A stretch of 41,752 nt of DNA from Dehalococcoidia bacterium. Its GTDB lineage: Bacteria; Chloroflexota; Dehalococcoidia; GIF9; AB-539-J10. Numbering within the stretch: the first letter of the stretch is position 1; the number at the start of each line of letters is the position of its first letter. The stretch lies in assembly GCA_030603485.1 (NCBI GenBank), contig JAUVXS010000001.1:1-41752 (forward strand), read 5' to 3'. The translations under genes and the position numbers were made by a program. The notes under the pieces are model-generated. The model searched no databases and was not told the origin of the DNA. It saw only the letters and a program-made list of their open reading frames with translations. This document shows, in pieces, positions 2,728 to 41,442 of this stretch.

Positions 2728-4533
2728 ATGGTAGCCAAAAGCAACCTGATTGTTACTACAAGCTGGGATGATGGCACCATAAGTGACCTCAAGCTTGCCG
2801 AATTATTAGATAAACATGGAATCGAAGGGACATTTTATATTTCCAGGTCTTCCAAGCATAATTTATTCCAACAAGAAGATATGAGGGTAATAGATGGAAA
2901 ATTTGAGGTCGGTGCTCATACGATGAATCACCCGGATTTAACCAAGCTTTCCTCGTCACGGGCTGAAGGGGAAATCAAGACCTCAAAAACATACCTGGAA
3001 GATTTGCTGGGGCACCCTGTATCCTTGTTCTGTTATCCGTATGGAAGATATAACAAAGCTACCAAGAAAATAGTGCAAGATTGCGGATTTGTTGGTGCCA
3101 GGACGTGTGAGCCGGGAGGCTTTGATTTGCCTGAAGACCCTTATCAGTGGCACATTACCCTGTCTGCCTCCAATGGTTCTCCACTTATGGCACTGAGAAC
3201 ATGGTGGAAGTTTCGCCTGTGGAAGATTAGCGGGCTACTAGATTGGGAAAGCCGAGCCAAATTATTATTTGATTTAGCTTTGGAAAGGGGAGGGGTTTAC
3301 CACATCTATGGGCATTCGGCAGAATTCGAAGCCAACAACGAATGGGATAGGCTGGAGAGGGTGTTGGGGTATATTTCGAATAAAGAAGGGGTGAAGTATG
3401 TGACGAATGGGGAAGTTTTAGGGGGGGGTGAAATAACAATGAAGAGAACATGGACTATGAGAGCTTACGAAGTGGGAGCCGAAAATGAAATGTTTGAACT
3501 TGATAAGGTGGTGTCGGGAGAAGCGATGCCGAACAGGGAGCGATGGATGGAGGGATGGAGGTGGATGTTTGTTGATAATCCTGCTGGTAATTCCATAATA
3601 TGGCTCGCAGAGCATAATGGCAAGCTGGTGGGTCAATACCCTCTTGTTATGGAAGATATGAAGATCGGGAGGGAAATCGCAAAGGGAAGTCAAATTGCGG
3701 ATACTATGACTCATCCTGAATATAGGAGGCAGGGAATAGCATCTATATTGGGAGAAAAGGCATTAAGCCAATTAAGGAAGAAAAAGGTATTTCTTGCATT
3801 TGGATTCCCTACTCCCCAGGTATATCCAATTCATATCAAATCTGGCTGGTTTGATGTTTGCCCTTTTCAAGTAATGGTGAAGCCCCTTAATTTAAGGAAC
3901 ATCCTAAGAAGCCATCTTAGCCTTAACAAATTATTGCTTTACATCTTAACGGTAGGCGGAAACCTGATTCTTAAAACACTTTTCAGGACAAAGAAGCCTC
4001 CGCAAGTTAATGAACTGATGATCACTAGAATCTCGCATTTTGATGATCGGTTTGATAATCTTTGGGAAAGAGTTTCCAATGATTACAGTATAATTGTAGC
4101 GAGAAACAAAAGATACCTGAACTGGAGGTATATTATCACTCCCAATATTGACTACACAGTCTACGCAGCTGAAATAAGGGCGGAGGTTTATGGATATGTG
4201 GTCTTAGGTAATTATAATGACTATGAAAAGAAAGATCTAAAGATTGGGTGTATCTATGACATTATTGCTGCGCTAGGTGATGAAGATGTACTTCATCACC
4301 TAATTTCCAAAGCCATAGATTATTTTAAGGAGGAAAAAGTAGACGCTGTTTTTTCGCAGACGGTAGCCAACAGAATTTATCGTAAAGTTCTTTTAAAAAA
4401 TGGCTTTGTTCCTTATCTCAGGTCAAAGAGTCGATTTATTGCATATAATGCCTCCCTTAGCGTTCCCAATGAATTTCTTAAGGATTTCAAGAATTGGTTT
4501 ATTCAACTGGGTGATTTGCCAAGGGTGTATTAA
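2728..4533 (+). CDS. Fusion protein: N-terminal NodB-type polysaccharide deacetylase plus C-terminal GNAT acyltransferase with an extended C-domain
   Basis: NodB motifs TSWDDG, HTMNHP and CYPYG. GNAT motif THPEYRRQGIASILG. The ORF opens at 2647, but ATG 2728 follows a strong AAGGAAGG Shine-Dalgarno. The domain boundary is at about 3421-3441. Confidence 0.8.
   Translation: MVAKSNLIVTTSWDDGTISDLKLAELLDKHGIEGTFYISRSSKHNLFQQEDMRVIDGKFEVGAHTMNHPDLTKLSSSRAEGEIKTSKTYLEDLLGHPVSLFCYPYGRYNKATKKIVQDCGFVGARTCEPGGFDLPEDPYQWHITLSASNGSPLMALRTWWKFRLWKISGLLDWESRAKLLFDLALERGGVYHIYGHSAEFEANNEWDRLERVLGYISNKEGVKYVTNGEVLGGGEITMKRTWTMRAYEVGAENEMFELDKVVSGEAMPNRERWMEGWRWMFVDNPAGNSIIWLAEHNGKLVGQYPLVMEDMKIGREIAKGSQIADTMTHPEYRRQGIASILGEKALSQLRKKKVFLAFGFPTPQVYPIHIKSGWFDVCPFQVMVKPLNLRNILRSHLSLNKLLLYILTVGGNLILKTLFRTKKPPQVNELMITRISHFDDRFDNLWERVSNDYSIIVARNKRYLNWRYIITPNIDYTVYAAEIRAEVYGYVVLGNYNDYEKKDLKIGCIYDIIAALGDEDVLHHLISKAIDYFKEEKVDAVFSQTVANRIYRKVLLKNGFVPYLRSKSRFIAYNASLSVPNEFLKDFKNWFIQLGDLPRVY
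3421..3428 (+). repeat. G8 homopolymer at the deacetylase/GNAT domain junction
   Basis: Sequence is tta gggggggg tgaaataacaATGaag. It reads in frame as GGG GGG GGT GAA ATA ACA ATG (GGGEITM). Confidence 0.95.
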
Positions 4534-4545
4534 GGAGACTGGGTC

Positions 4546-5871
4546 ATGAAACTAGAATTTCTTAATCTGATGAAATGCCCCTACTGTGGGGCTGATATTA
4601 AGATTGGAGATGTATACGAAGAAAGAGAAGGAGAGCTAATTAACGGACGTGTAAAGTGTGAATGCAGTGAATTTAGTGTCCTAGAAGGCATCTTAAACAT
4701 TAAACCCGGGCCCTTAAATAAATATGTTATTAATTCCCTTGCTAGGCATAGAGTAAATGAAGCTGCAGGACTTTCGTTATGGAAGTATGCTGAGGATATT
4801 TGCAGAATTGCGTCGCTGCCAGAATTCGGAAAGCTGGGAAGGTTATTATTAACCTTATCCAAAATTGTAGCTAGACATACGTATAAAAAATACGTAGATA
4901 AAGATTTATCATTTTTTAGCTTGCTAGGGACTAGTGCATCCGATATGTATCTAAAACATCGCTTCTCGACAGAATCATTTTGGTCTATATATCCCTTTGT
5001 CCCGGTATTAAAAGGGAAAGCGGGAAGGATTTTGGATATAGGTTGCGGAGCAGGTCATGCCTCTTTTATATTGTCTACATACGTTAGACCCAAGGAATTA
5101 GTTTGTGTTGATTATGCCTTCAGAAATTTATACCAAGCTAAGAAATATTTTGTAAAAGATGCTGAATTTATTTGTTTAGATGCTAATTATCCACTGCCAT
5201 TCAAAAACAGCACTTTTGACGCCATTTTCATGTCGGATGTATTTCATTACATATATGCTCGCACTCTATTAGCCAGAGAAATGGAGCGTCTACTTCTCCC
5301 CCAAGGAATTATCCTGCTCCTGCATTTATACAACTCTTTAAGTTATGATCCAGCAGCACATGGCAAACCATTATCTCCTTTAAATTGGGGTAGATTATTT
5401 CAACAATTGCCTGTCAAAACATTGCCGGAAAGGAATCTCATAGAGGACTTTGTCTTGAATAACAAACTTGATTTAGTGAAAGAATACCCGGAAGCTGAAT
5501 TGAATGCTTGCAACACCATATGCCTTGTAGGAACTAAGGATAAAACGCTTTTCAGAGTTTATAAGGAAATAAATGAAGGGTTCCTAATGCACAAAGATAA
5601 TTTGATCATCAATCCAATCTATAGCATTGAACATAGAAGAGAGAGGGCGATCTTGCGGAGGCAGCTCCCCAGTGAATCATTTAGAAGGGAATACCCTATT
5701 ACAGAAAAATATTTACCCGAAGAATATACCATAGGTGAGGGACTATGTAAAATCTTGAAAGGAAGAACTTTAAATTTAGCTCAGACCACGATTTCAGAAG
5801 AGGATTTACATCATATTGAGTATCTGATGAAGAAGTTTATTGTGATCAACGTTCCCAAGAATTATTATTGA
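4546..5871 (+). CDS. SAM-dependent methyltransferase with N-terminal Trm112-like zinc ribbon and a C-terminal extension of about 150 aa
   Basis: CPYCG...CECSEFSVLEGILNI (Trm112/DUF343-like ribbon). Motif I ILDIGCGAGHAS. AAGGAG Shine-Dalgarno 8 nt upstream of the ATG. Confidence 0.75.
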   Translation: MKLEFLNLMKCPYCGADIKIGDVYEEREGELINGRVKCECSEFSVLEGILNIKPGPLNKYVINSLARHRVNEAAGLSLWKYAEDICRIASLPEFGKLGRLLLTLSKIVARHTYKKYVDKDLSFFSLLGTSASDMYLKHRFSTESFWSIYPFVPVLKGKAGRILDIGCGAGHASFILSTYVRPKELVCVDYAFRNLYQAKKYFVKDAEFICLDANYPLPFKNSTFDAIFMSDVFHYIYARTLLAREMERLLLPQGIILLLHLYNSLSYDPAAHGKPLSPLNWGRLFQQLPVKTLPERNLIEDFVLNNKLDLVKEYPEAELNACNTICLVGTKDKTLFRVYKEINEGFLMHKDNLIINPIYSIEHRRERAILRRQLPSESFRREYPITEKYLPEEYTIGEGLCKILKGRTLNLAQTTISEEDLHHIEYLMKKFIVINVPKNYY

Positions 5872-5984: not shown

Positions 5985-7262
5985 GTGAAGAAAGTTTTAA
6001 TTATAGCCTATTTCCCGCCACTTCCTCTGCCATCGCCACGCATAAGGGGCTTAGCTAAATATCTCCCTGAATTTGGTTGGGAACCCATTATTCTCGCCGC
6101 CTCCTTGCCGCAAAAGTCGGATACGCAGTTCAGGGTCATAGAAACACCTTATCGTGATGTACTGAGCTTTTGGAAAAGGTTATTCAGGTTAAACCCGGAT
6201 GAGGATTTAAGAGAGCGAATAAAGAAGCGATTTAGCATAGCCTCTAAAAAGTCTTTGATAGATTTTGTACTTACCTTTGGCGGTGAAATTGTCAATTATC
6301 CAGACGGATATAGAGGATGGAAGCCCTTTGCTATTAAGGCAGGAGATGAGCTCTTACAAACAGAGGATGTACAGGCGGTGATCAGCAGCTCGGCACCGAT
6401 AACATGCCATCTTATCGCGAGGGAGCTGAAAATTAAGCATAAGATCCCGTGGGTCGCCGATTTTCGCGATCTTTGGACACAGAATCATAATTATAGATAT
6501 GGACCGATAAGAAAGCTGTTTGATAAAAGATTGGAGCTGAAAACAATATCTGAGGCTGATGCCTTGGTGACCGTTTCACAGCCATGGGCAGATAAGTTGA
6601 GCACGTTCCATAAAGGTAAGACAGCGTACGCAATTACTAATGGCTTCGATCCAGAAATAGTAAATATTCCCCCAACAAATCTGACAGGCAAATTTACAAT
6701 AACCTATACGGGCACCATTCACTTCGAAAAGCAGAACCCTACCAAGCTTTTTCTTGCTTTGCGAGAGCTAATCTCTGAGGGGATCGTGGATCCACATGAA
6801 GTCGAGGTTAGACTTTATGGCTCAGAAACGAGGCGGTTAGCTGAGGAAGTCGAGCAGTACGAACCATCAGATATCATAAAGCAATATGGAAGAGTGCCTG
6901 TGCAAGTAGCTCGCGAAAAACAAAGAGAGTCTCAACTGTTGCTTATCTTAGACTGGGATGACCCCCAAGAAAAAGGGGTTTATCCCGGAAAGATTTTTGA
7001 ATACCTGGCAGCAAGAAGACCAATGCTGGCAACCGGCGGGTTAGATGATAATGTTGTTGAACAGCTATTAATTGAAACCAAAACTGGTGTGCATGCTCCA
7101 ACTGTGGGGGATACTAAAAACAGGCTTGAGGAGCTGTACCGGGAATACAAGGCGGAAGGCAAGATAGCCTTTCAAGGGAACGAAGCAGAGATTAATAAAT
7201 ATAGCCACCGGGAGATGGCGAGGAAATTTTCAGATGTTCTTGGGCAACTGGTACAAGAATGA
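5985..7262 (+). CDS. GT-B fold glycosyltransferase (GT4-like)
   Basis: N-terminus KKVLIIAYFPP. C-terminal GKIFEYLAARRPMLA motif typical of GT4/WbuB-like enzymes. GTG start. Confidence 0.65.
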   Translation: MKKVLIIAYFPPLPLPSPRIRGLAKYLPEFGWEPIILAASLPQKSDTQFRVIETPYRDVLSFWKRLFRLNPDEDLRERIKKRFSIASKKSLIDFVLTFGGEIVNYPDGYRGWKPFAIKAGDELLQTEDVQAVISSSAPITCHLIARELKIKHKIPWVADFRDLWTQNHNYRYGPIRKLFDKRLELKTISEADALVTVSQPWADKLSTFHKGKTAYAITNGFDPEIVNIPPTNLTGKFTITYTGTIHFEKQNPTKLFLALRELISEGIVDPHEVEVRLYGSETRRLAEEVEQYEPSDIIKQYGRVPVQVAREKQRESQLLLILDWDDPQEKGVYPGKIFEYLAARRPMLATGGLDDNVVEQLLIETKTGVHAPTVGDTKNRLEELYREYKAEGKIAFQGNEAEINKYSHREMARKFSDVLGQLVQE

Positions 7263-7288: not shown

Positions 7289-9538
7289 ATGATTAAATCG
7301 CTAAGAGCTGTCAGCTCCGGCAGGTTACTCATGTTTACCTTGGTATTCCTCATCGCCACAGACCTCACCATTCTTTTTAATATCCCCGTCTTAAGGCAGG
7401 TTCTCGCCTTTCTTCTCCTTACCTTCGTTCCCGGGGCCCTCATCCTTTTCATCCTAAAACTGAATAAACTGGGCTTACTCGAGAAAATAGTCCTATCAGT
7501 AGGACTCAGCGTTGCTTTCCTAATACTCTTTGGTCTGGCACTAAACACCTTGCTACTTGCCATCGGTTATACCAAGCCTCTATCAACTGCTTCGCTACTA
7601 ATATCATTCAGCATCGCCACCATTGTTTTGGCTGTCGCCGCCTATATAAGGAACAAGGAAATCACCTTTTCCCCTTCCAATCTTAAGCTAACTACGAGAG
7701 AAAAGGCGCTTTTAATTTTACCCTCACTGTTACCACTGCTAAGCATAGCGGGAATGCGCATCATGAACTTGAGCGACAACAATATCCTTTTAATGTTCTT
7801 GCTTTTCGTGATTCCTGCCTTTGTTATCTTTATCTCATTTTGCCACAGTAAAGTTCCCCAAAGACTGTACCCCAGCTTGATATTCCTAATCAGTATTTCG
7901 CTCTTGCTTATGCTCTCGTTAAGATCAAACCACATTATAGGCTCGGACATACATGAAGCATTTTATTCCTTCCAAGCGACGTTGGATAATCTGCACTGGA
8001 GCATGACGGCACCTACGCTTACGAATGCTATTTTAAGCGTTTCACTGCTACCCTCCATCTATCACACATTTCTGAATATAAGCCAAGAGTATCTGTATAA
8101 GGTTCTATATTCACTTCTGTTCTCGATCTCACCCTTGGTAGTATATATTATCGCTAAAAAATATATCGGCAATTTCTATGCTTTTATGGCCTCCTTCTTC
8201 TTTATGTCACAGACTCGTTTCTTTTGGGCATCGTGTGGTCCTGCCACAACGACGGCCACCTTTTTCTTTGCCCTGGCAATTATGGTCCTGTTCTACGATG
8301 GCATGAACATGTTTGCTAAGAAGCTTCTGTTTATCATCTTCGCCACCTCATGTCTTCTGTCGCATTACGGAACTTCATATATTTTTTTCTTTTTACTGAT
8401 CATTACTTGGATAGGAATGAAAATAATACCACGGATTTTGCCTAGTGAAAGGAAAGTGGCAACTTCATCCAAGAATCCCGTCAAAGGAGGTGCACCCTCA
8501 AACTCATCGCTAAGAGGAGCCATACTTAGAAGTGATACCAATGCTAATAAGACTTCTCAATCGGCGACTTTTAATATTCCTCAATCTCGCCTTACGGGGA
8601 GTATAACGATAAATATTGTGGCGTTGTTTTTTGTTCTGCTCTTCTTTTGGTATAGTCAAATAACAGTAGCCCCTTTCAATATCGGTGTAGACTTGATATA
8701 CAACACATTTACCAACTTAAACCAATTGTTTCTGCTAGAAGCCAAGGGGGGGACAATCAGTGCCGCCTTAGGCGAAGATATATACATGATTCCACAGAGG
8801 ATACGGGTCGTTGTTTCTTGGCTCACTATCGCCTTTATAGCCATCGGTGTGTTAAGTACTATGGCAAGATACAAGAGGATGATAGCTGTTCCCGGCTCAA
8901 GGCACATTAAACCGAATTTCCTGTACTCGAAATTTGATATGGAGTACTTCGTTCTCTCACTGGCATGCAGTATCATATTAGTAAGCACAATCGCCCTCCC
9001 CTATGTCTCGGTAGCCTATAGTATGGAGAGGGTGTACTTTCAGACACTGGCAGTCTTATCACCTTTTTTCGTTGTTAGTGGAATAGTTATCGCCAAGTGG
9101 CTCAGAGCAAGAGCTCATTGGATTATCCTTGTGGTGCTGATACCTCTCTTCATGTGCACTACGGGCACAATGTATCAGCTATTCAATGCATCAGCCTCAA
9201 TGGCCTTAAATTCAGCCGGCAGGGAGTATGAGACCATGTATGTTCACGATGCGGAAAGCTATGCCGCTAAATGGCTAAAAGAATACGCCGATGAAAGGGC
9301 AACGATATATACCGCGTATGGTCTGGGACAGCGGATGTTGATAAGCCAAGGCAAAATCCCACGTTCTCAGGCTAGGGGGTCTTTTATTACTCGATATCAA
9401 GAAGAGAAAACAATTGCAGGCTACATTTACCTGAGATATACAGATATTAAAGTTTATGAAGTAGTGGCAGAATATCCTGATATATTCGTTGGAAAGAACA
9501 AAATCTATACCGCTGGTGGCTCAGAGATATATCGCTAG
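7289..9538 (+). CDS. Large polytopic membrane protein (DUF2206-like by recollection); candidate glycan polymerase, ligase or GT-C type transferase
   Basis: More than 15 hydrophobic segments. N-terminal LLTFVPGALILFILKL motif. Hydrophilic Ser/Asn/Thr-rich loop (SERKVATSSKNPVKGGAPSNSS...). Soluble C-terminus of about 110 aa ending KIYTAGGSEIYR. Confidence 0.55.
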   Translation: MIKSLRAVSSGRLLMFTLVFLIATDLTILFNIPVLRQVLAFLLLTFVPGALILFILKLNKLGLLEKIVLSVGLSVAFLILFGLALNTLLLAIGYTKPLSTASLLISFSIATIVLAVAAYIRNKEITFSPSNLKLTTREKALLILPSLLPLLSIAGMRIMNLSDNNILLMFLLFVIPAFVIFISFCHSKVPQRLYPSLIFLISISLLLMLSLRSNHIIGSDIHEAFYSFQATLDNLHWSMTAPTLTNAILSVSLLPSIYHTFLNISQEYLYKVLYSLLFSISPLVVYIIAKKYIGNFYAFMASFFFMSQTRFFWASCGPATTTATFFFALAIMVLFYDGMNMFAKKLLFIIFATSCLLSHYGTSYIFFFLLIITWIGMKIIPRILPSERKVATSSKNPVKGGAPSNSSLRGAILRSDTNANKTSQSATFNIPQSRLTGSITINIVALFFVLLFFWYSQITVAPFNIGVDLIYNTFTNLNQLFLLEAKGGTISAALGEDIYMIPQRIRVVVSWLTIAFIAIGVLSTMARYKRMIAVPGSRHIKPNFLYSKFDMEYFVLSLACSIILVSTIALPYVSVAYSMERVYFQTLAVLSPFFVVSGIVIAKWLRARAHWIILVVLIPLFMCTTGTMYQLFNASASMALNSAGREYETMYVHDAESYAAKWLKEYADERATIYTAYGLGQRMLISQGKIPRSQARGSFITRYQEEKTIAGYIYLRYTDIKVYEVVAEYPDIFVGKNKIYTAGGSEIYR

Positions 9539-9551
9539 CTATATTCTTGTC

Positions 9552-10634
9552 CTAAATACCATCGCTATCTCCCAAAGTGAAGTGCCATCTGTAAGCGTGG
9601 CTAACAATCTGGCTACCGAGCTCATTCTTATAGCACATAAGGGGAACAGCTACTGCGTGAGGCAAGAAGCCAAGTTTAACGAGTATTCTATCGTAAAAAC
9701 TACCTTTGACCACCCAGACACTAACCCTGCTCACTTTTCTGTGGTAAAAGTCCCGAAGCGAGGTAGAAAGCAACTTCTTTAGTACATTAGGATCATCCTC
9801 AATAGTCAAGAAGTCACAAATAAACCCCTTTGGTATGCTCTCAAAGAGGCTGATTTTGTTTACCATATACCCCAAGATAGCTCCATCCCTGTTTCTGGCA
9901 ATTAGAATTGAGTAAGTATCAGGATTGGTTACATACCTCCACTCCAGATAATCCTTTGTACGCACCAGCATAACATCGTAATTGTTTGAAACTTGTTCCC
10001 AAAGAGTATTGATATCATCAGGAAAACCTGGCTCTGCGTAAATAAGGACATCGCTTTTTGTTACCCCCCTCATGCCAATTCTGAATATGGCTCGGGAAAC
10101 AGTATCTATCACCGGTGAGAATGCCGAAGCCAAGAGCCGAGAGCGTAGTCTTGCCTTCAGCGGTTGCTTGGAGTTTATTATATGCACTAGGCTACGCAAC
10201 TTAATTGGCACCGGCACGTGATTCAACTTCTTGATGTAACCCGGCAGAGAGGTATCTTTATTAGGAATATTATAGATAAGGCTTATGCCTTTATTGATGA
10301 TGCTCTCCCTAGCGGCTTTGGATAGTGTCGTAAAGATACCTCGCCTTTGATAATCGGGGTGAGTGAAGGTATCTCCCATCTCAGCTACAGTGGTTATATT
10401 CCCTAATGCTTTCATCATCTTTGGCGTAACATTCTTTATTGCCACGATTTTGTCACCATCCTCAGCCAACCACATCTCCCCCGGCAGGATAGGATTCTTA
10501 TAACACTTCCATTCGTAATACTCAGGTTCATAAGACCTCATTAAGGGATTATATTTAAAAAAGGTTTTGCGGAACTCGGAGATTCTGGGCAAGTCTTCTC
10601 TTTTGGCTTTTCTAAAGGTTAATTCCTCTGACAT
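9552..10634 (-). CDS. GNAT-family acyltransferase with extended C-domain; paralog of the C-terminal half of 2728-4533
   Basis: THPDYQRRGIFTTL and LWEQVSNNYDVMLVRTKDYLEWRY parallel THPEYRRQGIASIL and LWERVSNDYSIIVARNKRYLNWRY in the fusion. ATG 10634 is preceded by GGAGGG and overlaps the upstream stop as TAATG. The longer ORF to 10697 is rejected. Confidence 0.75.
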   Translation of the reverse strand: MSEELTFRKAKREDLPRISEFRKTFFKYNPLMRSYEPEYYEWKCYKNPILPGEMWLAEDGDKIVAIKNVTPKMMKALGNITTVAEMGDTFTHPDYQRRGIFTTLSKAARESIINKGISLIYNIPNKDTSLPGYIKKLNHVPVPIKLRSLVHIINSKQPLKARLRSRLLASAFSPVIDTVSRAIFRIGMRGVTKSDVLIYAEPGFPDDINTLWEQVSNNYDVMLVRTKDYLEWRYVTNPDTYSILIARNRDGAILGYMVNKISLFESIPKGFICDFLTIEDDPNVLKKLLSTSLRDFYHRKVSRVSVWVVKGSFYDRILVKLGFLPHAVAVPLMCYKNELGSQIVSHAYRWHFTLGDSDGI

Positions 10635-11581
10635 TATTCCCTCCTCTGCCCACGGGATATAATTTGCTCGACTAATATTACAAATGGTAGTACCCATCTA
10701 AACCACCAGTCATAGGCTCCCTCAACCTTTCTTCTGAACTTGGCAAGGGAATCCTGGCTACCAATTGGAACCCTTCGCAATTCAAAGAAATCGCTCTTTA
10801 AGGTGTTACTGCCCCATTTGGTTACCGCGGCACGATACCCCGCCACCTGAACCCAATTTTTAGCTGATTTATTTATGTCCCCATAAGGATAACCGAAACA
10901 TGCCACCGGCTTTTTCAATATCCCTTCAAGGCATTGTTTAGAGCCTCTTAACTCCTCCATAGCGCTACTTTCGTCAATTTGGGTTAAGCTACAATGGCTC
11001 TTGGTATGGGAACCAAAACAAGCTCCCTGAGCATTCATAGCCAGAATTTCCTCTCGCCTAAGTGGCAACCAATATTGTCTGTTGTCCTGAGCGTGGGCAA
11101 GCGACTTCTCCTCTAGCTTTAGCCAGTGAAAGATTTTATCACTATCAATGTAATCAGTAACTATAAAGAAAGTTCCCTTGAGGTTATATTTCGCTAGGAT
11201 AGGAAAGGCGTTGAGATAATTATCCCGATAGCCATCATCCAAGGTGACAATGACTGTTTTGGGGGGAGGCTTCATATTCTTACCCTTATACTCAATAAAC
11301 TCGTCTAAGGTGATAACATTAAATCCATTTTGTGATAAGAATTCCATCTGCCAGGCAAATGCTTTAGGGGGAACATTAAGAAAAGACATAACATCATTTG
11401 CCTCTGGAAGGTCGTAGACCCTATGGTAGCATAAGATTCTGACTTTATTCCCGCTCAGTAACCGATATAACGGATGAATCACTATGCTGATGAAGTCAAC
11501 ACAGATGTGTAATAAACTTCTTAGTATTCTCATCTCAATTAATTCGAAGCACTTGCAAAAGTGCCTCCCACCAGATATCAT
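10634..11581 (-). CDS. NodB-type polysaccharide deacetylase with N-terminal hydrophobic segment
   Basis: Motifs VTLDDGYRDN, GSHTKSH and GYPYG. The start is uncertain (ATG 11581 or ATG 11533) and neither has a strong Shine-Dalgarno. Confidence 0.8.
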   Translation of the reverse strand: MISGGRHFCKCFELIEMRILRSLLHICVDFISIVIHPLYRLLSGNKVRILCYHRVYDLPEANDVMSFLNVPPKAFAWQMEFLSQNGFNVITLDEFIEYKGKNMKPPPKTVIVTLDDGYRDNYLNAFPILAKYNLKGTFFIVTDYIDSDKIFHWLKLEEKSLAHAQDNRQYWLPLRREEILAMNAQGACFGSHTKSHCSLTQIDESSAMEELRGSKQCLEGILKKPVACFGYPYGDINKSAKNWVQVAGYRAAVTKWGSNTLKSDFFELRRVPIGSQDSLAKFRRKVEGAYDWWFRWVLPFVILVEQIISRGQRRE

Positions 11582-17860: not shown

Positions 17861-19039
17861 TTACTCTCCTTCATTAGGTCTCCTACTTTCTAAAATCAGG
17901 TCGCAAATCTCTCGCACAGCTCCACTGCCACCAGCAGCCTGCATTACAATATCGGCTACTGCTATAACCATTGGATGGGCATCAGCAACTGCCACGCCCA
18001 CGCCAACAGCCCCTATACAAGCTATATCGTTGACATCATTGCCAACATAAGCTACTTTGTCAAGGTCAACATTATGTGCTTTTGCTGCCTGCTTTAGTAC
18101 GGACAGCTTGTCGGCTGCATTTTGGAAACAGGGAATACCCAGTTTATGACATCGTGCCGAGACCACAGGGTTCGCCTCTTTAGAAATGACGACCACGGGA
18201 ATGCCTTCCTGTCTTAGCCGCTCTATCCCCAGCCCATCTCCTCTATGGCACACGATAGACTCCTTGCCGTCCTGGGATACCAACACGTGGTTATCAGTCA
18301 ACACTCCATCAAAGTCCAGAACCAATAACTCAACGCCTTTAAGTTTCTCAATAGCTTGGCGCTGATGCCGTAGAGGGAGCAATTGCTCCAGCAGCAAAAA
18401 GTCCTCTTCAGTGTCAATTTGGAGTGAATCCAGCGGGTCCATTTCGTATAAAGAGATGCGGCCTCCTAGACGGTTCTCATGCTGCTTGAGAATCTCTGTT
18501 TTCGTTACATAGATGGAGCCATTTTCAATGTACTCTGGTGTGAAATCCTGTCTCCTTGGGCGATCCCGGTAGTCGTAGTTTGCTGATATAAGTTGACCAT
18601 CTTCCCACCGCCAGTAGAAGTTATACGAGCGACAGCAAGAGAACAATGAATCTGCACCTGCAGCATTTAGAGTATCAATCGCGTTATCAATATCGTCAGG
18701 CTTTCGTAGAGGTGAAGTAGGTTGTAATAAGACAAGCATCGATGGCAGATATCCTTCTGTTTGTTCCAGCAAGGATAGAACATGAAGAAGTACTGACTCG
18801 GCGCTGGCGGTATCCGTCGCCAACTCTGGGGGACGCATCACCACCTCTGCTCCATATTGGCGCGCTACCTTAGCGATTTCGGCATCCTCTGTTGATACTA
18901 TTGTGCGGCTTACCTGCCGCGCTTGTAAGGCTTGTTCAATCGTATAGGCTACTAATGGCTTACCAGCTAGCAGCCTGATATTCTTCCGTGGTACGCCCTT
19001 GGAGCCGCCACGGGCAGGGATAATTGCACAAATTCTCAT
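17861..19039 (-). CDS. Fusion: CMP-nonulosonate (NeuA-type) cytidylyltransferase plus KdsC-like HAD phosphatase
   Basis: N-terminus ICAIIPARGGSKGVPRKNI. C-terminal half has LVLDFDGVLTD (HAD motif I) and YVGNDVNDI (motif IV). Confidence 0.85.
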   Translation of the reverse strand: MRICAIIPARGGSKGVPRKNIRLLAGKPLVAYTIEQALQARQVSRTIVSTEDAEIAKVARQYGAEVVMRPPELATDTASAESVLLHVLSLLEQTEGYLPSMLVLLQPTSPLRKPDDIDNAIDTLNAAGADSLFSCCRSYNFYWRWEDGQLISANYDYRDRPRRQDFTPEYIENGSIYVTKTEILKQHENRLGGRISLYEMDPLDSLQIDTEEDFLLLEQLLPLRHQRQAIEKLKGVELLVLDFDGVLTDNHVLVSQDGKESIVCHRGDGLGIERLRQEGIPVVVISKEANPVVSARCHKLGIPCFQNAADKLSVLKQAAKAHNVDLDKVAYVGNDVNDIACIGAVGVGVAVADAHPMVIAVADIVMQAAGGSGAVREICDLILESRRPNEGE

Positions 19040-21442: not shown

Positions 21443-21580
21443 CTATCTCCTTTCACTGGTAGCCTTACATGCGTATTTGATGACATGCACTATAAGTGCC
21501 CTGCCAGCCAGCGGTTGGATATTCTTCCACGGTATGCTTTTGGAGCTGCCCCGAGCGGGGATCGTTGCGATGGTGGTCAT
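21443..21580 (-). pseudogene. Truncated N-terminal remnant (45 codons) of a NeuA/KdsB-type cytidylyltransferase
   Basis: MTTIATIPARGSSKSIPWKNIQPLAGRALIVHVIKYA... matches the first 45 residues or so of the intact enzyme at 17861-19039 (ICAIIPARGGSKGVPRKNIRLLAGKPLVAYTIEQA). It then hits TAG inside the Shine-Dalgarno of the next gene. Confidence 0.5.
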
Positions 21581-21608
21581 GATGCCTCTCGAACAAATAC
21601 TTCGTCTA

Positions 21609-22796
21609 TCATTCCTCCGCCGAAAATCTTCCGATTCTTTCGCACATCTCTCTGAATGCTTCCTGTATAACTTCAAGCCTATCATCTTCCCACACATATC
21701 GCTGGAAGGGACTTGCCCACGGTAACTGAGATCCCGGTTCAACACCTTGAATGAGGAAGTACCGCTCAGAGGTAGCACCATATGAGGGTATAAGTATCTT
21801 GAACATGAGGTAACGCGCTCGCGGATTCAAAACACATAACATAAATGGCCCGTTGCTGACAGACATATTCAAATAACTCAACTCATATAAAGCGGCCCGA
21901 AGCTCAACATTCCAAACAACCTCCGGGAAGACGAGGAGTCCATCCAGATCAGAAGGTAGAAGCTTGATAGCAGTCTCCGTGTCCCTTATCACAACGGGGC
22001 AATAAATGGATGGGTTCAAGCTTCGGACAAATGCTCCCCATGCTTCTAGATTGCTGTTTCTATCCTGCATATATGGACTTTCTCGTAAGGTAATGGTAAT
22101 CACCTTGCGGACACCGGCCTTCAGTTGGATCCAATCGCTTACGAAGCGGCGTGCCTGTGGTGTAGCTTGAACAGTGGGTAAGACAACTCCTTTGGATGCT
22201 GCAGCAACAACATGTGACATATTGTACTTCTCTTTGGGAAAACGAACCGTATACCACTTGGGAAAGATGTATCTCGTTAATGATGCCTGGAACGCTTGTG
22301 CTTCTTTACGCGATGTACATACTGTTACCTGTTGACATGAAGAGATGAGCCAACAGCAAGACACCAGGATATTTCTCAACCTCCACTTCATATAATCAGT
22401 ATCGTAGTACCCTATACCATCATCCCTGCGATAAATCTCAAGATCACCTGCGCGAAACCCCGCATCAGGTCCGGGGACAATGACAATGTGTAGTGACGGA
22501 CAGCCAACTTGCTTTCGCTGGAGTTCTGCAAGCACAAGGAACCAAACAATATCAAAGGTGGCTGGTGAAACCGCGAGGTCATAGAACGCATATAACACGT
22601 CAGACTGCTTCTTCCCTATATACCTATGCCAGATATTGTCGAGTACACCCCAGAGATTAGCTCGAATAGGTCGTGTGCTCTGCCAGATGAGTTTAAGGAA
22701 CCTGTGAGCACACCAGATAATCCCCTTCTTCCGCACCCTGCTGGCCAGGAAGCGGGGAGACAGATAGAGTTTCCAAGATTTAGCATTTGAACCCAT
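21609..22796 (-). CDS. Hypothetical protein; C-terminal half weakly GT9 (heptosyltransferase)-like
   Basis: Long ORF coupled to its neighbours (TAATG at 22796). ITITLRE..RNSNLEAWGAFVRSL and ELRAALYELSYLNMSVSNGPFMLCVL resemble the GT9 pattern 'EL.ali..a.l.ig.DSGp.Hla'. I do not recognise the N-terminal half. Confidence 0.35.
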   Translation of the reverse strand: MGSNAKSWKLYLSPRFLASRVRKKGIIWCAHRFLKLIWQSTRPIRANLWGVLDNIWHRYIGKKQSDVLYAFYDLAVSPATFDIVWFLVLAELQRKQVGCPSLHIVIVPGPDAGFRAGDLEIYRRDDGIGYYDTDYMKWRLRNILVSCCWLISSCQQVTVCTSRKEAQAFQASLTRYIFPKWYTVRFPKEKYNMSHVVAAASKGVVLPTVQATPQARRFVSDWIQLKAGVRKVITITLRESPYMQDRNSNLEAWGAFVRSLNPSIYCPVVIRDTETAIKLLPSDLDGLLVFPEVVWNVELRAALYELSYLNMSVSNGPFMLCVLNPRARYLMFKILIPSYGATSERYFLIQGVEPGSQLPWASPFQRYVWEDDRLEVIQEAFREMCERIGRFSAEE

Positions 22797-40119: not shown

Positions 40120-41442
40120 CTATTCTCCTTTTCTCCGGATTTTCATAGGGTGTCCATCCTCATGAGACTCCTTGATCTGCTGTATTGTCCATGGCAGAAA
40201 TGGTCGAACTGCCCCAATCCCGGTATTAACAGTTCTCTCTAGATCATTAACGGAAAATGATACTACCTGCGCTAGATTAGCCTGATTCAAGATCCTGTTT
40301 AAGGAAAGAAACACTGAAACCCAGTGCTGCCCCTGGTTCAGATAATTGCCGGGGATAGTACACCAACAACGATAGAGCCCTGGCTCACTGACAAATCTTT
40401 TATCCTCATTTGGATCCTGAATACTCGAGGTAGAGAAGAGACGAATACCCTGTGCATTATAAAGATGGAAGGTAGGATGTATCTCACCCTTTGAGTGCAG
40501 AACCCAGAATTCCATTTCCATGGTAACTGGCTCGGCTGCATCGTGATTAGAGGACACTTGTCCCTGACTATTCAATATACGTATGGCATGCACTCTAGCG
40601 GTGTCGCTACCCGGTGCATCATCAAAGTCCCATACCACCTCACCGGGGTCACTACTTCTGTCCTGCAGGTACGTTTCTACGACTTGGCTAGTCGGACCAA
40701 TCATCGCTACCCGGCCGGCGTCGAGAAGAATTGTCTGGTCACAAAGTGTGCTTATTGCCTGCATATTGTGACTGACAAATAGAACAGTTCGTCCTCCCCC
40801 AGCCACATCACGCATTCTGCCCAGGCACTTCTTCTGAAAACTATAGTCTCCTACTGCCAGTACCTCGTCCACCAGCAAAACCTCCGGCACCATGTGGGCA
40901 GCTACTGAGAAAGCGAGGCGCACCTGCATGCCGGTAGAGTAGCGCTTTAGCGGAGTGTCAATAAACTTCTGTACCTCGGCAAATTCGACCATATCATCAA
41001 ACTTGCGGTCAATTTCCTTTTTTTTCATTCCCAGGACAGCTCCATTGAGATAGATGTTCTCCCGCCCGGTCAGCTCCGGGTGGAACCCGGTACCCACTTC
41101 CAAGAGCGAACCAACCCGGCCGTGAATTTCGGCATACCCCTCTGTGGGCTCCGTAATACGGCAGAGAACCTTGAGGAGGGTGGTCTTACCGGCTCCGTTG
41201 CGGCCAATAATCCCTATCGCTTCGCCTTGCTTTACTTGAAAGGAAACATCTTTTATTGCCCAGATGTACTCGGAATCTGGATTTCGGGGTTTACTTTTTG
41301 GGCTAGCCGCCGCCGGGCGAAAGCGACGGAAGGGAGCCGAGAAAGTATTTACCAAGCTCTCTCGTAGAGTCCTATAGCCGACAAACTGACCCAAGTGATA
41401 ACGCTTACTCAGATTTTCTGCTTTAATAGCAATGTCACTCAT
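40120..41442 (-). CDS. wzt: O-antigen/teichoic-type ABC exporter ATPase with C-terminal carbohydrate-binding (Wzt_C-like) domain
   Basis: Walker A GRNGAGKTT, signature YSTGMQVRL, Walker B LLVDEVLAVGD. There are about 190 further residues with beta-rich character (VHAIRILNSQGQ..VTMEMEFWV). Confidence 0.85.
   Translation of the reverse strand: MSDIAIKAENLSKRYHLGQFVGYRTLRESLVNTFSAPFRRFRPAAASPKSKPRNPDSEYIWAIKDVSFQVKQGEAIGIIGRNGAGKTTLLKVLCRITEPTEGYAEIHGRVGSLLEVGTGFHPELTGRENIYLNGAVLGMKKKEIDRKFDDMVEFAEVQKFIDTPLKRYSTGMQVRLAFSVAAHMVPEVLLVDEVLAVGDYSFQKKCLGRMRDVAGGGRTVLFVSHNMQAISTLCDQTILLDAGRVAMIGPTSQVVETYLQDRSSDPGEVVWDFDDAPGSDTARVHAIRILNSQGQVSSNHDAAEPVTMEMEFWVLHSKGEIHPTFHLYNAQGIRLFSTSSIQDPNEDKRFVSEPGLYRCWCTIPGNYLNQGQHWVSVFLSLNRILNQANLAQVVSFSVNDLERTVNTGIGAVRPFLPWTIQQIKESHEDGHPMKIRRKGE

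Follow-up and report, generated by a model that had tools for sequence, protein, structure and literature searches.

How did two enzymes that most genomes encode separately come to stand in one reading frame across a run of eight guanines (G8)? The question is raised by an open reading frame (ORF) at 2728-4533 on the forward strand of a 41,752-nucleotide (nt) stretch of DNA from a Dehalococcoidia bacterium (contig JAUVXS010000001.1, assembly GCA_030603485.1), which we refer to as the window. The ORF joins a NodB-type deacetylase to a GNAT acyltransferase, and the G8 tract lies at the seam. An earlier note on this DNA had offered three explanations: a slipped-strand contingency switch between fused and separate proteins, a recent fusion caused by a 1-nt insertion, and a homopolymer assembly error. 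We think it probable, though by no means certain, that the window carries a real and recent gene fusion. Overall, the most likely account is an ordinary mechanism, the frameshift fusion of a coupled deacetylase-acyltransferase pair, seen at an early stage.

The junction and its near-identical relatives

The ORF holds the G8 tract in frame and translates to 601 amino acids (aa; ...NGEVLGGGEIT-MKRTWTMRAY...), and the source record likewise calls a 601-aa product (P0121). Window positions 3420-3441 read A GGGGGGGG T GAAATAACA ATG, with the G8 at 3421-3428. The ATG at 3439 shares the frame of the ORF. The GNAT domain starts there (MKRTWTMRAY) and would be 364 aa long if translated alone. The end of the tract lies 10 nt upstream of this ATG, and the earlier note was right both about this spacing and about the tract being in frame at the junction. 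A 628-aa version of the ORF starting at TTG 2647 was dropped, as ATG 2728 fits both the called start in the closest relative, L001, and the family alignment. The features that matter here are as follows.

2728-4533, forward strand: fused ORF, 601 aa plus stop, comprising a NodB/CE4 deacetylase, a 6-residue linker and a predicted tandem-GNAT acyltransferase (translation, Pfam).
2728-3420, forward strand: NodB (CE4) deacetylase domain, with the conserved YVTNGEV motif at its end (invariant residues, homologs).
3421-3428, forward strand: G8 tract, encoding Gly-Gly-Gly (first and second base of the third codon); the putative site of the frame-fusing indel and the apparent G-rich Shine-Dalgarno (SD)-like motif of the downstream gene (alignment to relatives).
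3429-3438, forward strand: TGAAATAACA, the putative former deacetylase 3' end, stop and spacer, which in the split frame reads GTG AAA TAA CA and is now part of the linker (..E I T) (sequence).
3439-4533, forward strand: GNAT module with the apparent former start codon, ATG 3439, retained (starts of split relatives, model).
4546-5871, forward strand: downstream S-adenosylmethionine (SAM)-methyltransferase, 441 aa, whose synteny with the pair is kept in both clades described below (profile match, contig comparison).

A change of one nucleotide in either direction restores two genes. With G7 the deacetylase frame reads GGG GGG GTG AAA TAA, followed by CA and the ATG, and with G9 it reads GGG GGG GGG TGA; both predictions of the earlier note can be read directly from the sequence.

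When a protein collection was queried with the 601-aa sequence, the matches were a single fused relative, P0001 (616 aa, 61% identical), a GNAT of 364 aa, P0002 (99% identical), and some 90 free-standing GNATs 350-370 aa long. In clustering at 90%, the window protein is the one 601-aa member of a group that also holds three 364-aa GNATs and one 236-aa deacetylase. The split GNATs P0002, P0123 and P0124 (364 aa, 97-99% identical) begin exactly at the position of ATG 3439.

The evidence that carries the argument comes from four contigs of four sequencing runs, L001 (SRR30965929), L004 (ERZ25073594), L005 (SRR22302347) and L006 (SRR30965923), whose GNAT and methyltransferase genes share 97-98% identity with those of the window. 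All four have the two-gene arrangement: a 236-aa deacetylase, TAA, 2 nt, ATG and a 364-aa GNAT. Their tracts compare with that of the window as follows.

Window: TTA GGGGGGGG TGAAATAACAATG, 8 nt, fused.
L001: TTA GGGGAGGGGG TGAAATAACAATG, 10 nt, split.
L004, L005 and L006: TTA GAGGGGG TTAAATAACAATG, 7 nt, split.

Besides their length, the tracts of the relatives differ from that of the window by substitutions and by an interrupting A, which leaves G5 runs at most. Because each split allele has this interrupting A, they are not homopolymer slip variants of the G8. The alignment of L001 to the window covers 3983 bp with 64 mismatches, and its single gap is the tract; L004-L006 likewise show no indel other than the tract over the GNAT and methyltransferase genes. 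Between the window and L001 the ratio of nonsynonymous to synonymous divergence (dN/dS) is 0.07 and 0.20 for the two halves of the ORF, values that indicate purifying selection on both. Exact look-ups of the window GNAT part, the methyltransferase and the upstream glycosyltransferase family 4 (GT4) gene gave no second observation of the G8, and scans of genome and metagenome contigs, made for the wider survey, found no relative closer than 57%.

These comparisons suggest how the fusion may have arisen. The ancestral state would have been a translationally coupled pair, with a 236-aa NodB-type de-N-acetylase followed by TAA, 2 nt, ATG and a 364-aa tandem-GNAT protein. A small indel in the SD-like motif of the downstream gene would then have let the deacetylase frame run on into that of the GNAT, most economically through one 2-nt AG/GA deletion from the GGGGAGGGGG allele. 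The same deletion would have removed the interrupting A and left an uninterrupted G8. The homopolymer thus appears to be a consequence of the fusing mutation rather than a pre-existing slippery tract. The fusion proposed in the earlier note is therefore the best supported of its three options, with four contigs at 97-98% identity split as it predicted, but the 1-nt insertion is not, as the nearest allele, that of L001, implies a 2-nt deletion.

The predicted product is one chain of 601 aa in which a short flexible linker, GGGEIT, connects two complete domains. Some free GNAT may still arise by internal initiation, with the former ATG at 3439 and a G tract able to pair with the anti-SD sequence remaining 10 nt apart. 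The free-standing deacetylase would then be the sole product lost. Fusion would fix a 1:1 stoichiometry and the proximity of the two activities, which would explain both its tolerance and its two origins, the second of which is described below. The new G8 is probably more prone to indels than the interrupted ancestral tracts.

The relatives also proved to be mosaics. In their GNAT and methyltransferase genes L004 and L006 share 98-99% identity with the window, but they diverge strongly from it, with 30-70 mismatches in each 200 nt, over the last two-thirds (3') of the NodB gene (window 3000-3390) and in the glycosyltransferase gene after 6000 (6000-7240). One breakpoint lies near 3356, about 65 nt upstream of the tract. 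In L005 a NodB end like that of the window meets a junction of the L004 type. This pattern suggests that recombination shuffles the parts of the cassette.

A second fusion and a conserved cassette

The fused relative found in the protein search belongs to a sister clade with about 61% identity to the window. Two of its proteins, P0001 and P0126 (616 aa; contigs L002, L003 and L009), are fused (GGTTTGACTATG), with the junction GAT GGT TTG ACT ATG. Their split relatives, L007 and L008, read GAA GGT TTA CTA TGA, the TGA overlapping the GNAT ATG (ATGA). A 1-nt indel thus separates the fused from the split forms of this clade, and no homopolymer is involved. Two studies contributed the assemblies that carry fused alleles, the L009 sample being from a South China Sea cold seep, and these alleles differ from one another at a synonymous divergence (dS) of 0.15 with a dN/dS of 0.24 (NodB part). 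As fused alleles recur in two studies at this divergence and under this constraint, fusion of the pair must be viable and maintained in nature. The earlier note had held that orthologs fused without a homopolymer would leave a stable fusion whose tract is coincidental; such orthologs occur in the sister clade, but not in the lineage of the window itself.

The best 120 NodB homologs were all free-standing proteins of 228-305 aa (120/120), and so were nearly all the GNAT homologs, which is why we take the split state to be ancestral. If it is, the two junctions indicate that the fusion arose independently at least twice.

The pair itself is a widespread arrangement. We fetched 160 related loci and counted the 64 distinct loci with enough upstream sequence; in 44 of these a NodB deacetylase gene lies directly upstream of the GNAT gene on the same strand. 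The spacing seen most often is 2 nt (12 loci), and some pairs overlap, for example by ATGA. In related loci GGAGG, GGAGGGG, GGGGG or G6 occurs within the last codons of the deacetylase gene, some 6-12 nt ahead of the GNAT start codon. As such motifs recur at the equivalent place, the G-rich stretch at our junction is best read as the SD-like motif of the downstream gene. Beyond TNGE(I/V), members of the NodB family differ in both the length and the sequence of their tails; such a motif is thus free to lie there, and a frameshift would spare the domain.

Recurrent fusion, adjacency in 44 of the 64 loci and tight coupling together lead us to predict that the short NodB and the 361-aa tandem-GNAT family share a substrate. 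If the fusion in the window is real, it is a clean natural example of a bifunctional enzyme originating through one small deletion in a ribosome-binding motif, with the pre-fusion allele (98% identical) still in circulation and a separate fusion of the pair in a sister clade. It resembles Rosetta-stone fusions, in which adjacent coupled genes that are separate in most genomes become joined by a small indel near the stop and start, with the old start kept as an internal methionine, and in which fusion implies that the two proteins work together. It differs from them in being at the level of a population, with split relatives 97-98% identical, in having a second fusion in a sister clade, and in the position of the indel within a ribosome-binding motif.

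The cassette shows further variety. At the equivalent junction of a split NodB-GNAT locus, near position 1000 of L113, there is an uninterrupted G6 (GTGGGGGGAAAAGATAATTATG), and G runs recur at this ribosome-binding position. The NodB genes upstream of this GNAT family are of two subtypes, 30 long and 14 short among the 44 loci. Both subtypes are present within the glycan cluster of the window, a short 236-aa NodB in the fused cassette and a long 315-aa PgaB/IcaB-like NodB in a split one.

9552-11581, reverse strand: paralogous split cassette, a 315-aa long NodB deacetylase (10634-11581) and a 361-aa GNAT with a TAATG overlap (sequence, Pfam).

The TAATG coupling of this pair, to which the earlier note had likened the G7 and G9 arrangements, was found as described: the junction reads gaaTAATGtca, with GGAGG upstream, and the GNAT starts MSEELTFRK. 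The paralogous and fused GNATs are 27% identical.

Alternative explanations of the tract

Several points weigh against a real and recent fusion. P0121 is the sole fused member of its 90% cluster and comes from one contig, and the near-identical contigs of the other runs are all split. The comparison rests on consensus contigs, in which a G8 could be miscalled. The split-to-fused direction depends on outgroup parsimony, the internal initiation at ATG 3439 is conjecture, and the biochemical roles of the two halves are read from their domain families, their fold and the genes around them.

The earlier note had described the G8 as the only long G run in the window. No other G/C run reaches its length, but the window also has a G7 at 8746-8752 and a G6 at 11261-11266. 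G8 or C8 occurs once in the 41.7-kb window against 1.24 expected, and at least once in 59 of 100 dinucleotide-preserving shuffles. The count is therefore at chance level, and we discarded the argument from rarity. Only the position of the tract is notable, and that follows from its derivation from the G-rich ribosome-binding motif of the downstream gene.

The first alternative is an assembly or base-calling artefact, in which the true allele is split (for example G7, G10 or GGGGAGGGGG) and the tract length was miscalled. We regard this as unlikely, though it deserves real weight. As the longest G/C homopolymer in the window the G8 is the likeliest place for a length error, and an error of +1 or -2 would give exactly this fusion, which the lineage shows in a single contig. 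However, the window has no other indel relative to its relatives over 2.6-4 kb. Its ten other homopolymers of at least 7 nt (A8 at 1652 and 39609, T8 at 41018, G7 at 8746, two A7 and four T7) all lie within uninterrupted ORFs or between genes, and none breaks an ORF. The second-longest G run, the G7 at 8746-8752 on the forward strand, is inside a DUF2206 membrane-protein gene whose ORF is intact at 749 aa, the length of its L007 ortholog, and the ORFs that contain these runs match domain profiles at full length. The ten intact runs thus give no sign of systematic homopolymer error. Reaching G8 from GGGGAGGGGG would also need the loss of a base other than G, which is untypical of errors in homopolymer length, and fusion at the same junction is viable in the sister clade. 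The assembly error raised by the earlier note is weakened by the intact runs and by the tract being the sole indel, but it retains some probability. At this junction a homopolymer error and a real fusion look identical, which calls for caution before the 601-aa protein is propagated in annotation.

The second alternative is a slipped-strand contingency locus, in which a bifunctional fusion (G8) alternates reversibly with two enzymes (G7, G9 or G10) and so diversifies a surface glycan. This we consider improbable. Uninterrupted G8 falls in the length range of the phase-variable poly-G tracts of bacterial surface-glycan genes, and the locus does lie within a surface-glycan cluster. Tract length varies among close relatives (7, 8 and 10 nt), and both frames give complete, plausible products. 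Uninterrupted runs also slip far more often than interrupted ones: in Listeria an A6 run slips at 5.5e-7, compared with less than 3e-10 for A2GA4 (PMC2831843). That comparison concerns A runs, but the greater mutability of an uninterrupted run makes reversion or further change of the window tract plausible.

Against a switch, the homopolymer is not conserved at the locus, the tracts of relatives being interrupted by A and differing by substitutions too. One G8 or C8 in 41.7 kb is what chance predicts, and no other gene of the glycan cluster has such a tract. Phase-variable repeats are typically biased to the 5' end and turn a gene off, and C-terminal frameshifts are weakly selected (PMC3315296). 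The tract here is at the 3' tail of the upstream gene, with both states 'on', and the fused and split forms of the sister clade are polymorphic without any repeat.

The poly-G contingency loci of Campylobacter, Neisseria and Haemophilus are alike in that a coding G8 in a surface-glycan cluster alters its product on a change of one nucleotide. They differ in that the tract in the window is unconserved and unenriched, sits at the 3' end of the upstream gene and gives intact enzymes in both frames with no ON/OFF states, and in that those loci belong to host-adapted pathogens, whereas this one is from an uncultured environmental prokaryote. The existence of the G8 is the only positive evidence for the contingency switch put forward in the earlier note; its chance-level count, its 3' location and the repeat-free sister clade all speak against it. 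We are more doubtful still of a stronger version, in which the G8 would be a working switch that toggles a fusion enzyme and two enzymes and thereby alters surface-glycan N-acylation, with the ribosome-binding motif of the junction a recurrent hotspot.

Recoding, with ribosomal frameshifting or transcriptional slippage on the G run making the other architecture as a programmed minor form, is very improbable: a run of identical bases does sit exactly where a frame change toggles the architectures, but relatives lack the homopolymer, known transcriptional slippage favours long A/T runs, we know of no -1 slippery heptamer made of G only, and programmed frameshifting was set aside as no supporting feature, such as a stimulatory element downstream, was noticed.

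Predicted function and gene neighbourhood

The recent fusion that we favour would have joined two complete enzymes. The NodB half matches PF01522 (Polysacc_deac_1) over aa 9-121 (E value 8.5e-21, 74.6 bits against a Pfam cutoff of 23.1) and has weak sequence matches to solved CE4 structures in a search of the PDB. All 38 family members compared share D14, D15, H64, R125, D172, W173, H192 and H196, and so does the window protein. We read these residues as the canonical catalytic and metal-binding motifs of CE4 enzymes (an Asp-Asp pair in motif 1, a His in motif 2 and the later Arg/His). In the other half, GNAT profiles match aa 268-366 (PF13527, E value 1.7e-15; PF00583, E value 1.1e-08; Acetyltransf_9/1/7), and YRRQGIA, the acyl-CoA-binding R/Q-x-x-G-x-G/A segment, is nearly invariant in 52 homologs and kept in the window protein. 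The fused protein therefore retains the invariant residues of both families, and both its domains are complete.

The AlphaFold model has a predicted local distance difference test (pLDDT) score above 90 from about residue 240 to 600, which is the GNAT half, and predicts linker residues 222-238 to be disordered. The model of the NodB half was set aside, as its pLDDT was 35-80, probably because homologs fused to GT4 were mixed into the alignment. A sequence search of the PDB found no relative of the GNAT half. Foldseek aligned its model to N-myristoyltransferase structures over about 370 columns (E value about 1e-15, target template-modelling score 0.57-0.63, identity 10-17%). The likeness to these tandem GNATs, one of several such families (Fem, MshD and Eis are others), may point to two GNAT folds per chain and to N-acyl transfer from acyl-CoA. 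It is a distant one, at 10-17% identity, and the context is a prokaryotic glycan rather than protein N-termini.

We suggest, as the simplest reading of the sequence and the model, that the pair edits an N-acetylated amino sugar of a surface glycan, with de-N-acetylation followed by re-N-acylation with a different acyl group. The logic is familiar. NodB and NodA in Nod factor synthesis, and the fused NDST of heparan sulfate, combine an amino-sugar de-N-acetylase with a transferase that acts on the freed amine. The window pair would share with these the pairing or fusion of a CE4/NodB-type de-N-acetylase with an amine transferase, but the likeness is one of logic only, as neither NodA nor the sulfotransferases are related to the predicted tandem GNAT that would fill this role here. 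A literature search found no characterised NodB-GNAT pair or fusion and no assay of any member of this GNAT family.

The NodB subtype and the GNAT also occur in other fusions (homologs P0093, P0017 and P0094-P0120): the NodB subtype with a formyltransferase (P0093, 504 aa) and with GT4 glycosyltransferases (about 600-1000 aa), and the GNAT with an FkbM methyltransferase (664 aa). Of these, the fusion of NodB to a formyltransferase lends support to a role in which an acetyl group is removed and another acyl group added.

The 361-364-aa GNAT belongs to an uncharacterised prokaryotic family that is widespread in Dehalococcoidia and in archaeal metagenome-assembled genomes (MAGs), and the named genomes with the closest relatives of the pair are Methanosarcinales, Methanophagales and Dehalococcoidia MAGs. 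For a cassette widespread in Dehalococcoidia-like bacteria and methane-cycling archaea, our functional hypothesis would thus be that an amino sugar is first de-N-acetylated and then re-N-acylated.

As a whole, the window encodes a surface-glycan cluster: several GT4 and GT2 glycosyltransferases, methyltransferases, a DUF2206 membrane protein, NeuB, a CMP-transferase, a DegT aminotransferase, epimerases and a Wzt ABC ATPase; it contains no tRNA. The methyltransferase at 4546-5871 on the forward strand has an N-terminal Trm112-like zinc ribbon (NF038101, aa 1-54) and keeps its synteny with the GNAT in both clades as well as in Methanosarcinales-like contigs. A Methanophagales contig and seep-derived contigs share the synteny with this methyltransferase and the DUF2206 protein, an arrangement that leans archaeal. 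The Trm112-like ribbon and the MptE-like and DUF1616/DUF2206 families in the window lean archaeal.

A 112-aa ORF at 21443-21781 on the reverse strand matches only the first 38 positions of the CTP_transf_3 profile (E value 7e-7), with a SIS-domain gene directly after it. It resembles the remnant of a truncated gene; a complete cytidylyltransferase gene is present at 17861-19039.

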